IMG/VR virus record: IMGVR_UViG_3300043416_000038
Coordinates: 1 to 25,814 of that record
From: a virus
Taxonomy: Duplodnaviria > Caudoviricetes
Direction: 5' to 3' (one strand)
Length of the DNA stretch: 25,814 nt
Every line of letters begins with the position of its first letter. Within the stretch, counting starts at the first letter, position 1. The notes under the pieces were generated by a model. It had not been told where the DNA came from, made no database searches, and saw nothing but the letters and a program-made list of their open reading frames with translations. A program made the position numbers and the translations under genes. Shown here piece by piece: positions 1 to 23,303 of this stretch.

Positions 1-2
1 TT

Positions 3-584
3 GTTGACCGACCAAAACACAAGGTTGATATTGACGAGAGGTTAAAGAATATTAATTTGTCAATAGCAAATGCAGAGAACAGAATGAATCTGTGGCATTA
101 TAAAGATAGATTAAGCAGACTTAGCGGTGGTGTTGCAGTTGTGCACGTAGGAGCTAATAGCGAGCTTGAGATGAAAGAAAAGAAGGATAGGGTAGATGAT
201 GCTATCCATGCAGTTAAAAGTGCCTTAGAAGAAGGTATTTTGCCTGGTGGTGGAATTGCATTGAGAAACTTGATGCTAAACAATTTTCCTAGAGTAAACA
301 ATAAAAGCTATATCGCTGGTTGGTATTCTGTATTGAATTCTTTATACTATCCATTTGCTCAAATAATAGATAATGCCGGAGTAAATGCATTAGATATTGT
401 TAGTGGTTTAAATACACATGATTATTCTTTTGGATATAATGTATTGACTGAGGAATTTGGAGACATGTATAAGATGGGTGTTATCGACTCAACTAAAGTA
501 ATTAGAAATGCAATTGAGAATGCTGTGTCTGTATCAGCTACATTATTAACAACCGAAGCAACGGTTACAAACAAAAGAGCATAA
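3..584 (+). CDS. groEL: Chaperonin GroEL (Cpn60), C-terminal part; gene begins upstream of the window
   Basis: The frame is open from position 3. It contains GroEL signatures RLSRLSGGVAVVHVGA-x-SELEMKEKKDRVDDAIHAVKSALEEGILPGGG and GVIDSTKVIRNAIENAVSV. The GGM tail is absent. Confidence 0.95.
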   Translation, partial: VDRPKHKVDIDERLKNINLSIANAENRMNLWHYKDRLSRLSGGVAVVHVGANSELEMKEKKDRVDDAIHAVKSALEEGILPGGGIALRNLMLNNFPRVNNKSYIAGWYSVLNSLYYPFAQIIDNAGVNALDIVSGLNTHDYSFGYNVLTEEFGDMYKMGVIDSTKVIRNAIENAVSVSATLLTTEATVTNKRA

Positions 585-841
585 TGAGAGCATTTGGAAG
601 AACATTGGTAATATCTGAGATAAAAGAAGAGGTAAAGAACAAGCTTGGTCTTATAATCACTGAAGCTAACGATAGAGATATTCGTTATAAACTAGGAGAA
701 GTGTTTATGGCTGGTGAAGATGTAAAAGAAATAAATGCCGGAGATAAACTTTACTACGATAAAGTTAATGCTAGTGAGTTGAGACTAGATGGTAAAAAAT
801 ACCTTATTATAAACTTAAGCGACGTAAGAGTCGTACTTTAA
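584..841 (+). CDS. groES: Co-chaperonin GroES (Cpn10)
   Basis: 85 aa, TAATG-coupled to groEL. It has a mobile-loop-like GLII and the GroES pattern GEV..AGEDVKEINAGDKLYY...LDGKKYLIINLSDV. Confidence 0.9.
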   Translation: MRAFGRTLVISEIKEEVKNKLGLIITEANDRDIRYKLGEVFMAGEDVKEINAGDKLYYDKVNASELRLDGKKYLIINLSDVRVVL

Positions 842-20342: not shown

Positions 20343-21710
20343 ATGGCTCAAGCTGTAAATTTTTCAACTAATGCTATCACTGGTGGAGCTCAATTAACTC
20401 CAGCTCCAGTTAAAGCAACATTATCTACTAACTATGTAGGTACATTTGACTTTTTGTCACATGAATTACCAGACCTTTACGAAAAAGAATTCGAGAGATT
20501 TGGTAACCGTTCTATCGCATCTTTCTTACGTTTAGTAGGTGCTGAAATGCCTTCTACTTCTGATTTAATCAAATGGAGTGAGCAAGGTCGTCTTCACGTA
20601 TTTGGAACTGCTACTAAAGCAACTGCATCTACAATTACTTTCTCTGCGGCTCACAACGTACGTTTGAACCAAACTGTAGTTATTAATGATACTTCTAACG
20701 GAGTTACTATTAAAGCTTTAGTTACTGGTATTGATGTAGATGGTGTAACTGTAACTGTTGCTCCTTATAGCGCTGCTAACTTAGCTGCTTTGAGTACTAC
20801 TTCAGGAGCTTTGAAAGTATTCGTTTATGGTTCTGAGTTTAAAAAAGGAACTAACGGTATGTCTGGTTCTTTGGAAGCTAAATCTGACATCTTAGAAACT
20901 AACCCAATTATCATCAAAGATAAATACGAGGTTAATGGTTCTGATATGGCTCAAGTTGGTTGGATTGAGGTTACAACTGAAAATGGTGCTTCTGGATACT
21001 TATGGTATTTAAAATCTGAGCATGAAACTCGTTTACGTTTCGAAGATTACTTAGAAATGTCTATGGTTGAAGGTGAGCCTGCTGCTGTAGGTTCTGCTGT
21101 AGCTGCTGCTGGTTACAAAGGTACTAAAGGTTTGTTCTACGAAATCGCTAATAGAGGTAACGTTGGAACAGGTGCTATCACTGAAAGAGCTGACTTAGAA
21201 AACATCATCAAGGTGTTGGATAAAGAAGGTGCTATTCAAGAGAACGTATTGTTCGTTAACAGAAAAACATCTTTCGAGATTGACACTGTATTGGCTGCTC
21301 AAAATAACTTCGGTTCAAGTGGAGCTTCTTACGGTTTGTTTGACAACGAACAAGACATGGCATTGAATCTTGGTTTTAAAGGATTTAACTTAGGTTATGA
21401 TTTCTACAAAACTGACTGGAAATACCTTAACGATGCTACAACTAGAGGTTCTATCTCTGACATCGATGGTGTATTAGTTCCTGCTGGAACATTGACAGTT
21501 TACGACCAAGTTCTTGGTAAAAACGCTAAACGTCCGTTCTTACACACACGTTATAGAAAATCTGAAACAGAAGATAGAAAATACAAATCATGGATCGTAG
21601 GATCTGCTGGTGGTGCTTCTAACTCTGAATTAGATGCGATGCAAGTTAACTTCTTATCTGAAAGAGCTTTGGTTGTTTTAGGTGCTAACAACTTCATGTT
21701 GTTGAAATAG
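20343..21710 (+). CDS. Major capsid protein
   Basis: 455 aa after the scaffold, with strong high-expression codon bias. Motifs IKWSEQGRLH, PIIIKDKYEVNGSD and GTKGLF. Followed by a strong terminator. Confidence 0.85.
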   Translation: MAQAVNFSTNAITGGAQLTPAPVKATLSTNYVGTFDFLSHELPDLYEKEFERFGNRSIASFLRLVGAEMPSTSDLIKWSEQGRLHVFGTATKATASTITFSAAHNVRLNQTVVINDTSNGVTIKALVTGIDVDGVTVTVAPYSAANLAALSTTSGALKVFVYGSEFKKGTNGMSGSLEAKSDILETNPIIIKDKYEVNGSDMAQVGWIEVTTENGASGYLWYLKSEHETRLRFEDYLEMSMVEGEPAAVGSAVAAAGYKGTKGLFYEIANRGNVGTGAITERADLENIIKVLDKEGAIQENVLFVNRKTSFEIDTVLAAQNNFGSSGASYGLFDNEQDMALNLGFKGFNLGYDFYKTDWKYLNDATTRGSISDIDGVLVPAGTLTVYDQVLGKNAKRPFLHTRYRKSETEDRKYKSWIVGSAGGASNSELDAMQVNFLSERALVVLGANNFMLLK

Positions 21711-21739: not shown

Positions 21740-21766
21740 AAAGGTAGACTTCGGTTTACCTTTTTT
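21740..21766 (+). terminator. Intrinsic terminator after MCP
   Basis: AAAGGTAGAC-TTCG-GTTTACCTTTTTT, with a cUUCGg tetraloop and six Ts. Confidence 0.9.
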
Positions 21767-21770
21767 GTTT

Positions 21771-21778
21771 TATATTTG
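21771..21778 (+). promoter_or_regulatory. Bacteroidota-type -7 promoter element (TATATTTG-CA)
   Basis: TAnnTTTG immediately after the MCP terminator. No protein gene follows before the next terminator. Confidence 0.6.
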
Positions 21779-21782
21779 CATG

Positions 21783-21852
21783 TACGAATTTTGATTTTTT
21801 CTCTCATTTTTTTTAAACCACTAATTAGTTTATTCTTTTTAGTGGTTTTTTT
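21783..21852 (+). ncRNA. Candidate ~70-nt small RNA
   Basis: Bounded by the promoter at 21771 and the hairpin/U tract at 21815-21852. The 5' part is U-rich and single-stranded. Confidence 0.4.
21815..21852 (+). terminator. Intrinsic terminator
   Basis: AAACCACTAA (21815-24) pairs with TTAGTGGTTT (21839-48), followed by further Ts. Confidence 0.7.
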
Positions 21853-21880
21853 GTTTATATAAAAATAAGTTGTATATTTG
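21850..21880 (+). promoter_or_regulatory. Bacteroidota sigma-A-type promoter of the leader/tRNA operon
   Basis: TTTG (21850-53), a 19-nt spacer and TATATTTG (21873-80): the full -33/-7 consensus. Confidence 0.85.
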
Positions 21881-21884
21881 CACA

Positions 21885-21956
21885 ATGAAAAATACAAAAA
21901 ACAATAGTCTACGTCACCCGCAACAAGATAATCTCTTGGGTGGAACTAGTGTGTAG
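21885..21956 (+). CDS. Putative attenuator leader peptide MKNTKNNSLRHPQQDNLLGGTSV
   Basis: The ATG is 5 nt after the -7 element. Codons 9-14 are CTA CGT CAC CCG CAA CAA, cognate to all five downstream tRNAs, and overlap attenuator segments. Confidence 0.8.
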   Translation: MKNTKNNSLRHPQQDNLLGGTSV

Positions 21957-22011
21957 TATTGTTATATAAATACATTTAAACTAAAGCCATCCATATCGGG
22001 TGGCTTTTTTT
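21913..22011 (+). promoter_or_regulatory. Putative transcription attenuator with alternative 1:2, 2:3, 3:4 pairings
   Basis: Segment 1 CACCCG (21915-20), segment 2 TGGGTGG (21937-43), segment 3 GCCATCCA (21986-93), segment 4 GGGTGGC (21998-22004) plus T7. Confidence 0.75.
21983..22011 (+). terminator. Intrinsic terminator (attenuator 3:4) directly upstream of the tRNA genes
   Basis: AAAGCCATCC-atatc-GGGTGGCTTTTTTT, ending 4 nt before tRNA-Pro. Confidence 0.85.
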
Positions 22012-22015
22012 ATTT

Positions 22016-22088
22016 CGCGTAGTGACAAAATTGGTTACGTGCCCGCCTTGGAAGCGGGAGACTGTAGGTTCGAGTCCTGCCTATGCGA
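22016..22088 (+). tRNA. tRNA-Pro(UGG)
   Basis: Acceptor CGCGTAG/CTATGCG, C1-G72, A73. Anticodon arm CCCGC-CTTGGAA-GCGGG. T arm GTAGG-TTCGAGT-CCTGC. D stem is poorly paired. Confidence 0.85.
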
Positions 22089-22093
22089 CAAAA

Positions 22094-22165
22094 TACAGTA
22101 TGATGCAATGGTTAGCATACGAGACTTTGACTCTCGCTATCTAGGTTCGAGTCCTAGTGCTGTAA
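22094..22165 (+). tRNA. tRNA-Gln(UUG)
   Basis: Acceptor TACAGTA/TGCTGTA (U1-A72). D arm ATGC/GCAT. Anticodon arm CGAGA-CTTTGAC-TCTCG. T arm CTAGG-TTCGAGT-CCTAG. Confidence 0.95.
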
Positions 22166-22170
22166 CAAAT

Positions 22171-22244
22171 GGTGTTATTGCGCTTAATGGTAAGGCGGTT
22201 GGACTGTGAATCCAATTATATGAGTTCGAATCTCATATAACACC
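22171..22244 (+). tRNA. tRNA-His(GUG)
   Basis: Encoded G-1:C73. Acceptor GTGTTAT/ATAACAC. Anticodon arm TTGGA-CTGTGAA-TCCAA. T arm ATGAG-TTCGAAT-CTCAT. Confidence 0.95.
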
Positions 22245-22247
22245 CAA

Positions 22248-22319
22248 TTTAGTATAGTTTAATGGATAGAACAACAAGCTACGAACTTGTAAATGGGAGT
22301 TCGAATCTCTCTACTAAAA
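22248..22319 (+). tRNA. tRNA-Arg(ACG)
   Basis: Acceptor TTTAGTA/TACTAAA. D loop with A20. Anticodon arm ACAAG-CTACGAA-CTTGT. T arm GGGAG-TTCGAAT-CTCTC. Confidence 0.95.
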
Positions 22320-22324
22320 CAAAT

Positions 22325-22406
22325 ACCGAAATGACATAAAAACGAATTGGCAGAGTATCCAGTCTTAGAAACTGGGGTTTTATGGGTTCGAGTCCCATTT
22401 TCGGTA
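22325..22406 (+). tRNA. tRNA-Leu(UAG), atypical (short variable region, enlarged D region)
   Basis: Acceptor ACCGAAA/TTTCGGT, A73. Anticodon arm CCAGT-CTTAGAA-ACTGG. T arm ATGGG-TTCGAGT-CCCAT. Confidence 0.75.
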
Positions 22407-22423
22407 CAAATAAAATAAATTCG

Positions 22424-22431
22424 TACTTTTG
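22424..22431 (+). promoter_or_regulatory. Bacteroidota-type -7 promoter element (TACTTTTG-CA)
   Basis: TAnnTTTG between the tRNA array and the ATG at 22459. Confidence 0.75.
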
Positions 22432-22458
22432 CATCTTTAATTTTAATATAATTTAATT

Positions 22459-23235
22459 ATGGCAAGACCAGTTACAAAGAAGGAGCTTCCTTCTAAGAAA
22501 GAATTCGAATTTAAAGATAGAGTATATCTGTTAAAAGGGAATTCAACACCAATCTCTTATATGCTTCGTTCAAAGCATTCACCAAACAAACCATTATTGT
22601 ATTTTGACCAAGAGTTCAAAGTAAATCGTGCTTTAAGATGGAGTGATAATCAAACATCTCCTTTTATTGACGAGCAAGATGGATACGCTATAGCAACACC
22701 AATCATTTTTGAAAATGGTTCTTTGTACGTTAAGAAAGAACAAGTTGAGTTGCAGAAGTTTTTATCTATCTATCATCCAGATAACAACAATGCTTATTAC
22801 GAGTTTGACGCTGAAGAAAAAGCAGCTGAAGAGTATGATGAGTTAACAGCTAAGTTAGATGCTCAAAATACAGTAAGAGAAATGCCTATTGAAGACTTAG
22901 AAGCTATTGCTAGAGTATTATTGAAAGGCAAGGTAGAATTAATGACTTCTTCTGAATTAAGAAGAGATATGTTGATTTTTGCAAGTAAGAATCCACAAGA
23001 GTTTACATCTTTAGTTAATGATGATTCTATTAAGTTTAGAAACATTGCTATTAGAGCGGTTCAAATGGATATCATAAATGTAAGTTCTGATGGAAGAACT
23101 GTTAATTGGAGTGGTAAAGATGGTGGTAGAATAATCACTGTTCCATTTGGTGAGAATGCTTATTCTGCACTAGCCGCATTCTTTTTGACAGATGAAGGTA
23201 TGGATGTACTATCTGATATTTCAAACAAATTATAA
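22459..23235 (+). CDS. Conserved hypothetical phage protein in the structural region
   Basis: 258 aa, with its own promoter and terminator. No function recognised. Confidence 0.85.
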   Translation: MARPVTKKELPSKKEFEFKDRVYLLKGNSTPISYMLRSKHSPNKPLLYFDQEFKVNRALRWSDNQTSPFIDEQDGYAIATPIIFENGSLYVKKEQVELQKFLSIYHPDNNNAYYEFDAEEKAAEEYDELTAKLDAQNTVREMPIEDLEAIARVLLKGKVELMTSSELRRDMLIFASKNPQEFTSLVNDDSIKFRNIAIRAVQMDIINVSSDGRTVNWSGKDGGRIITVPFGENAYSALAAFFLTDEGMDVLSDISNKL

Positions 23236-23271: not shown

Positions 23272-23303
23272 AAAGCACTCTCGGAAGGGGGTGCTTTTTT
23301 TTT
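23272..23303 (+). terminator. Intrinsic terminator
   Basis: AAAGCACTCTC-GGAA-GGGGGTGC followed by T9; GNRA loop. Confidence 0.85.

Follow-up and report, generated by a model that had tools for sequence, protein, structure and literature searches.

A stretch of phage DNA of 25,814 nucleotides (the window) carries a five-gene tRNA array behind what is very probably a ribosome-mediated transcription attenuator, one whose output is the same set of tRNAs that its leader senses, as far as computation can establish it. An earlier note on this sequence had proposed a leader-peptide attenuator over a phage tRNA operon, and the proposal is supported by co-variation of leader codons with tRNA content, by covariation in the antiterminator (2:3) and terminator (3:4) helices, and by folding of the nascent RNA with ribosome-covered nucleotides masked. 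According to this modelling, the tRNAs are most likely made only when ribosomes stall for lack of those tRNAs. What we computed is the anatomy of the locus, its conservation, the codon-tRNA co-variation, the helix covariation, and the geometry of the switch.

The tRNA cassette and its leader

The window is a partial virus record that includes the genes for terminase, portal, capsid and virion proteins. At 51-57% identity, the best matches listed for the capsid protein come from Maribacter phage Panino and the Flavobacterium elemo phages, and Cellulophaga phages are present among the 85 records that match it; because these are its capsid relatives, we infer a host within the Flavobacteriaceae. 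The cassette and its neighbours comprise the following features.

20343-21710: major capsid gene, the upstream neighbour of the cassette
21740-21769, + strand: intrinsic terminator 3′ of the major capsid gene, which would isolate the cassette from capsid transcription
21773-21853, + strand: second −7 box, transcript of about 70 nt and terminator; a candidate small RNA
21850-21880, + strand: Bacteroidota primary-sigma promoter, −33 box TTTG at 21850-53 and −7 box TATATTTG at 21873-80
21885-21956, + strand: predicted leader ORF of 23 codons, MKNTKNNSLRHPQQDNLLGGTSV, kept in relatives L005-L009
21900-21963, + strand: long 5′ hairpin (−19.9 kcal/mol), predicted to hide segment 2 when the leader is untranslated
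21909-21926, + strand: sensor codons CTA CGT CAC CCG CAA CAA (Leu Arg His Pro Gln Gln)
21937-21993, + strand: antiterminator (2:3), pairing 21937-43 with 21987-93, with extensions 21947-50:21980-83 and 21956-60:21969-73
21983-22011, + strand: intrinsic terminator, stem 21986-92:21998-22004, T-run 22005-11
22016-22089, + strand: tRNA-Pro(UGG), A37, by Rfam
22094-22166, + strand: tRNA-Gln(UUG), A37, by Rfam
22172-22245, + strand: tRNA-His(GUG), A37, by Rfam
22248-22320, + strand: tRNA-Arg(ACG), A37, by Rfam
22325-22407, + strand: atypical tRNA-Leu(UAG), A37, with a short variable loop and a D-arm insertion
22424-22431, + strand: −7 box of the 258-aa gene, the right edge of the cassette
22459: start of the 258-aa gene, the downstream neighbour

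Both promoter boxes lie where a full Bacteroidota promoter had been claimed, with a 19-nt spacer between them. Start-site mapping puts the TAnnTTTG box at −12 to −5 (PMC9723704; consensus and position also in the accessible text of PMC7366714), so the predicted transcription start is the A of the ATG, at 21885. The leader transcript is probably leaderless, a point absent from the earlier note. The same 4-nt spacing from box to ATG occurs in 19 of 63 related leaders, and 24 of the 63 have no such box.

The claimed 23-codon ORF is present, and its codons 9-14 read exactly as described, placing the sensor run 10-15 codons upstream of the leader stop. The chance that six cognate codons stand in a row and include every one of the five amino acids is about 4e-7 over 17 positions, a figure computed after the fact from the codon usage of 12 window genes. 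The peptide had no match in Pfam or NCBIfam, and a BLAST search with the leader among annotated phages produced partial matches only.

Downstream, four of the five tRNAs that had been read from the sequence are solid by Rfam (Pro-UGG, Gln-UUG, His-GUG and Arg-ACG, 55-65 bits). Leu-UAG is weak, scoring 26.4 bits against a gathering score of 29 because of its atypical form, which is shared with at least seven other loci (L009, L178, L262, L274, L306, L334 and L339) and is conserved with paired stem changes in relatives. The long variable arm is also missing from many other phage Leu(UAG) genes. All five window tRNAs decode C-starting codons and all have A37; other tRNA blocks group U-starting or A/G-starting codons, and this grouping resembles the classes of position-37 modification. 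G37 is the site of TrmD. The 12 tRNA-Pro-like matches across five Flavobacteriales genomes carry G37; six were confirmed as Pro-UGG, and six other matches contained no tRNA. Position 37 was A in six and G in six of the phage Pro tRNAs in a set not selected for A37, so A37 is a lineage trait. Over 5,674 codons, the window phage uses CGT 20 times and other CGN codons never, as against 172 AGA, and CTA 36 times as against 217 TTA; this avoidance of CGN and CUN codons argues against codon matching as the purpose of the tRNAs.

A terminator 3′ of tRNA-Leu was looked for at 22408-22459 and not found, so read-through could enter the 258-aa gene, as far as the terminator at 23272-23297. RNA-library contigs from four freshwater runs, which may include DNA, contain pieces over the capsid gene and the 258-aa gene, and low-depth contigs (X1, 22198-22403; X2, 22142-22315; X4, 22105-22329) span several tRNA genes and their spacers. 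None of these contigs, which carry no information on ends, strand or level, lies over 21781-22104.

The candidate small RNA unit at 21773-21853 is retained also in relatives without the cassette. Its CTCTC(A)TTTTTT motif is present in L001, L002, L005, L009, L010 and L013 and missing from L014-L016, and the RNA would be complementary to A-rich start regions ending in ATGAGAG; a start-codon target was not found within the window. At the left end of the window (1-841), GroEL-like and GroES-like reading frames were recognised by eye.

Leader codons and tRNA content across loci

That sensor codons co-vary with array content in related loci had been named as a check on the attenuator, and they do so in both of the leader sets described here. 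Loci were gathered as at least 120 viral loci with a promoter-ATG-tRNA pattern, at least 120 with a T-run followed by tRNA-Pro (no ORF requirement), and at least 120 genome loci, to which three annotated phages were added. As the promoter-ATG pattern scans give mostly chance matches, only terminator-headed blocks were kept. Among the matches listed there were 321 tRNA blocks, 104 with a terminator just upstream, of which 80 were distinct. A leader ORF (ATG start, length 14-40 codons, stop 40-66 nt upstream of the T-run) was found in 72 of these 80 blocks, as against 77 of 407 terminators without downstream tRNAs, under a rule that is blind to tRNA content and whose distance window was chosen after inspecting the data. 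The rule takes the wrong frame in the second Calle_1/phi38:1 block, where some 85 nt separate the end of the true leader from the T-run, and it overlooked L271, whose leader starts with GTG; wrong-frame and missed leaders were left in the counts. Removal of similar peptides left 63 leaders.

Among these 63 non-redundant leaders (from the matches listed), the fraction of codons 5-15 cognate to the downstream array was 0.47, as against 0.26 when arrays were permuted (0 of 10,000 permutations), in a set whose counts overstate independence because many Pro-led leaders are kin. With 19 dissimilar array types the fractions were 0.52 and 0.23 (0 of 20,000). The excess peaks 9-18 codons upstream of the stop and is missing from the last six codons and from codons 2-4. 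Taken one by one, 14 of the 19 amino acids that could be assessed showed an association at p<0.05 without correction, among them Pro (p=5e-10), Glu (2e-6), Arg (2e-6), His (3e-6) and Tyr (1e-5); the association was not significant for Asn, Gly, Ile, Met and Thr. In 23 arrays of Pro/Gln/His type, a Glu codon stood in the zone of seven of nine leaders with a tRNA-Glu and one of 14 without (p=0.001). Individual leaders read QQQQQQ upstream of three Gln tRNAs (L158), SLYLSFCYSL upstream of Tyr, Phe, Leu, Ser and Cys tRNAs (L178), and KSNNPKP upstream of Pro, Lys and Asn tRNAs (L409). The peptide sequence is not conserved between array types.

The rules were then frozen and applied to a held-out set of 120 loci found by a T-run followed by tRNA-Tyr, a few of them from genomes already sampled at other blocks. 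A terminator preceded 39 of the 74 Tyr genes that lead a block; a leader was recovered for 26 of these 39, and 23 remained once redundant ones were removed. Tyr stood in the leader zone of 16 of the 23 Tyr-led leaders and five of 39 Pro-led ones (p=1e-5), and Pro in seven of 23 and 34 of 39, respectively (p=1e-5). Permutation within the Tyr set matched the observed value in 5 of 10,000 trials, and the antiterminator preferred its own terminator arm in 17 of the 23.

Cultured carriers include the Cellulophaga phages phi19:1, phi38:1 and Calle_1 and the Maribacter phage Panino, in each of which a leader-terminator head precedes a Pro block. Phage phi38:1 has three tRNA blocks, each with a matching leader: IATDIRTKGVK before Ala, Lys, Ile, Gly, Met, Asp, Thr, Val and Arg; YNNFSWYSNCSFSS before Tyr, Ser, Asn, Trp, Phe and Cys; and LLHQEPLEQLRLP before Pro, Glu, Gln, His, Leu and Arg. 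Leader-terminator-tRNA units, prophage or chromosomal, also occur in five bacterial genome assemblies. No leader-terminator head was found at six host tRNA-Pro loci or in a 12.5-kb stretch of T5 with 15 tRNAs.

A Chryseobacterium-labelled locus (L497, 1-1700, minus strand) carries a Trp-Trp leader, a terminator, tRNA-Trp and then a trpE-like gene, and its leader scores 31.4 bits against Rfam Trp_leader (cut-off 41). Judged from its sequence, this is a trp-type attenuator with tRNA-Trp as its first gene, a bridge to the attenuators of amino-acid operons. By eye, the leaders of L246, L254, L256 and L467 have sigma-70-like promoters or Shine-Dalgarno-like sequences, which suggests that the system also occurs outside the Bacteroidota. 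In L283 and L270 the leader 3′ end and terminator are intact, but the ATG has disappeared or been joined to a longer frame upstream; read by eye, these look like decayed or captured leaders.

Leader RNA structures, the modelled switch and rival readings

The intrinsic terminator claimed between leader and tRNAs was recovered together with its 3:4 pairing; its predicted end lies 4 nt upstream of tRNA-Pro, and the fold of 21968-22015 has a z of −5.5. The 2:3 helix, with both extensions that had been named for it, is the minimum free energy (MFE) fold of 21930-95 (−16.3 kcal/mol, z −2.8). The 1:2 pairing proposed between CACCCG (starting at 21915) and TGGGTG did not hold, as its probability is 0.00 in the untranslated fold, where a shifted register (21918-21:21940-43) lies within the longer 21900-21963 hairpin. 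Covariation was not significant for the claimed register or the MFE register (35 and 117 of 500 shuffles, respectively), and conservation of a 1:2 helix is thus unsupported in either register.

Compensatory changes in related phages, also named in advance as a check, were found for the other two helices. In an alignment of 15 sequences picked for a similar leader end, the 2:3 helix is 86.7% paired with compensatory changes at four of seven pairs, and the 3:4 helix 96.2% paired with compensatory changes at six of seven; none of 500 shuffles matched the paired percentage of either, in a control that ignores relatedness. The 3′ part of the leader (44-86 nt before the T-run) binds its own terminator arm at −12.6 kcal/mol, as against −7.9 for the arms of other loci, and the own arm was preferred in 59 of 63 leaders among the matches listed. 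Control terminators gave −6.6 and −6.8 kcal/mol and preferred their own arm in 63 of 150 cases, that is, no preference. The 2:3 partner is locus-specific.

Ribosome positions were modelled by masking the nucleotides that the ribosome covers, on nascent or full-length RNA. With the window RNA transcribed to 21995, masking up to codons 14-15 brought 2:3 near 1.0, a ribosome from codon 16-17 onward brought it to 0, and ribosome-free RNA gave 0.04. The contrast that had been expected between a stalled ribosome and one at the stop codon is therefore a predicted switch on nascent RNA, but not at full-length equilibrium, where the terminator prevails whatever the ribosome state (P(3:4) at least 0.60, and at least 0.98 for stalls at codons 9-14). 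The switch must then be kinetic, which requires 2:3 to arise first and to last until polymerase is past the T-run. Across leaders among the matches listed, the terminator arm was sequestered in 56 of 63 when the A site lay 13 codons upstream of the stop, in 36 at nine codons, in 13 at seven and in two at the stop. The modelled switch point thus falls 8-10 codons upstream of the stop, where the codon enrichment also has its edge, at the onset of stalls that permit the antiterminator.

Leader translation, termination, their coupling and the feedback are what we infer from this geometry. Host RNA polymerase would start at the leader AUG. Prompt decoding of Leu-Arg-His-Pro-Gln-Gln would carry the ribosome to codon 16 or later, where it covers segment 2 (21937-43), so that the terminator forms and transcription ends 4 nt before tRNA-Pro. 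Were a Pro, Gln, His, Arg(CGN) or Leu(CUN) tRNA missing, cleaved or uncharged, the ribosome would stall in the sensor run and segment 2 would pair with 21987-93 before the 3′ arm of the terminator exists; the five tRNA genes would then be transcribed, and their products would relieve the stall.

The leader might instead be a general sensor of slowed translation, in which any stall in the first 14-15 codons, or failed initiation, opens the switch and cognate codons only bias it, and we consider this unlikely. In the model, masking anywhere in codons 4-15 yields 2:3 on nascent RNA, so that stalls at the non-cognate codons 4-8 likewise free segment 2; 39 of 63 leaders antiterminate when ribosome-free, with no protection by 1:2, and non-cognate codons also stand in the sensor zone. 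Yet codon identity, which tracks the array amino acid by amino acid in the held-out set as well, would be superfluous for a general sensor, and the untranslated state of the window leader terminates.

How the cassette is distributed among close relatives bears on a further reading, in which the attenuator works elsewhere and the cassette in the window phage is a relic, a passenger with a leaky terminator. A search with the downstream gene gave 33 loci, of which eight have the tRNA cassette. L001, with 99.8% capsid identity, lacks it, and comparison with L001 sets its extent at about 21853-22426, a block whose presence or absence implies gain or loss as a unit. Six relatives with at least 84% identity in the next gene have no cassette. 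A capsid-based search gave 80 loci, of which L034, which shares its contig with L005, was the only one with tRNAs, a result of the patchy occurrence of the cassette. In L010-L012 the tRNAs are retained, but a 60-nt non-coding leader with a terminator of its own takes the place of the peptide leader. This patchiness, the different leader of L010-L012 and a Leu tRNA under the Rfam cut-off are what a relic might look like, but in L005-L009 the peptide ORF, the unchanged sensor run, segment 2 and the terminator are all intact despite changed spacers and loops, and relatives keep the atypical Leu form through paired changes in its stems. We regard a relic as improbable, more so than the general sensor.

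Last, the leader could be a separate small-peptide gene or small RNA, in which case the tRNAs would arise from constitutive read-through or from antitermination by the phage, and their agreement with the leader codons would be incidental; a similar ORF does occur by chance at 19% of control terminators and an unrelated promoter-terminator unit lies just upstream, but the codon match is limited to one zone and shifts with the array, the antiterminator is locus-specific and missing from control terminators, and the peptide is not conserved across array types, which leaves this reading very little room.

The 60-nt leader of L010 (3472-3546; also in L011 and L012) has two hairpins along with its terminator and is possibly a different type of switch; it had no Rfam match and occurs in the same three records only. 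Reading frames are inserted at the same post-capsid site in L035 (5359-6334) and L074 (2372-3165), and the site looks like an insertion hot spot.

Precedents, trigger and meaning

The leader-peptide attenuators of amino-acid operons include trpL, hisL and the multivalent thrL and ilvL, the multivalent ones sensing several amino acids, as the window leader would. The window differs from them in that the regulated genes are five tRNAs rather than proteins of biosynthesis, transport or aminoacylation, in that each tRNA is represented by roughly one codon instead of a run of the same codon, and in being phage-borne and probably leaderless. No Rfam leader family reached its gathering score in the window, the best being Phe_leader (28.8 against 55 bits, E 0.72). 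T-box riboswitches likewise sense tRNA status and switch a terminator, but they bind uncharged tRNA directly with no ribosome, whereas the window would act through the ribosome; no T-box (stem I specifier loop, T-box bulge) was matched by Rfam in the window up to E=5.

The pheL-pheA attenuator, as set out in the accessible text of PMC3082878, resembles the window in its short control-codon ORF, its 2:3 pairing that excludes 3:4, and read-through upon stalling. In the Flavobacteriaceae, clues to attenuation have been described upstream of amino-acid biosynthesis operons (PMC9723704), and the Bacteroid-trp motif RF01692 is known (PMC2864571). These share the host phylum and promoter type of the window, which has no match to RF01692; they control biosynthetic genes, with no tRNA array mentioned in the accessible text of either source, whereas the window would control tRNAs. 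The Anabaena trn operon is, like the window, a spare tRNA array that is normally silent and induced under translational stress, but in this cyanobacterial case the DNA-binding repressor TrcR acts at initiation with no codon-specific sensing (PMC10272220, PMC8421152, in their accessible parts; neither ‘attenuat’ nor ‘leader’ occurs in that of PMC8421152). By analogy, the TrcR-repressed operon is the nearest functional counterpart, with a different mechanism. Among phages, the tRNA-Tyr of T5 and SP15 counters retron-Eco7, and phage tRNAs rescue infection from tRNA-cleaving defence (PMC11555353); PARIS and Schlafen defence provide further cases of phage-tRNA counter-defence. Such tRNAs replace destroyed host tRNAs, likely the same purpose as in the window. 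Those of T5 and SP15 have a strong promoter, and ‘attenuat’ occurs 0 times in the accessible text of PMC11555353, whereas the window has a leader-terminator head.

The literature searched, in which subscription journals are thinly represented, contained no description of an attenuator over tRNA genes, and an earlier one may exist. What would be new is leader-peptide attenuation whose output is the sensed tRNAs; the mechanism, of trp/phe type, is known.

The trigger is the least certain part of the account. By analogy it would be loss of host tRNAs during infection, which we hold to be about evenly balanced against starvation or modification stress. Loss is favoured over amino-acid starvation because extra tRNA would not cure starvation, and replacement is favoured as the purpose because of the avoidance of CGN and CUN codons and the published rescue from tRNA-cleaving defence. 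More tentatively, at a little short of an even chance, the units may form a widespread, modular counter-defence circuit of tRNA-loss-gated blocks in phages and some bacterial loci, whose leaders are rewritten as tRNAs are gained and lost and in which A37 is protective. Each block would then come on only when host defence or infection destroys its tRNAs, and A37, in place of the G37 of host tRNA-Pro, would make the replacements TrmD-independent or nuclease-resistant.

The reason that phages carry tRNAs has long been debated among codon bias, host tRNA decay and counter-defence. A codon-stall sensor over tRNA genes implies replacement tRNAs made on demand, and would widen attenuation into a closed loop that acts on the machinery of decoding itself. 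Cultured carriers make the system testable, with phi19:1 and phi38:1 on Cellulophaga baltica, Calle_1 and Panino, and each leader predicts the tRNA loss that should fire its block. If the counter-defence circuit is true, the leaders would be a record of attacked tRNAs and ready-made, codon-specific reporters of tRNA loss.
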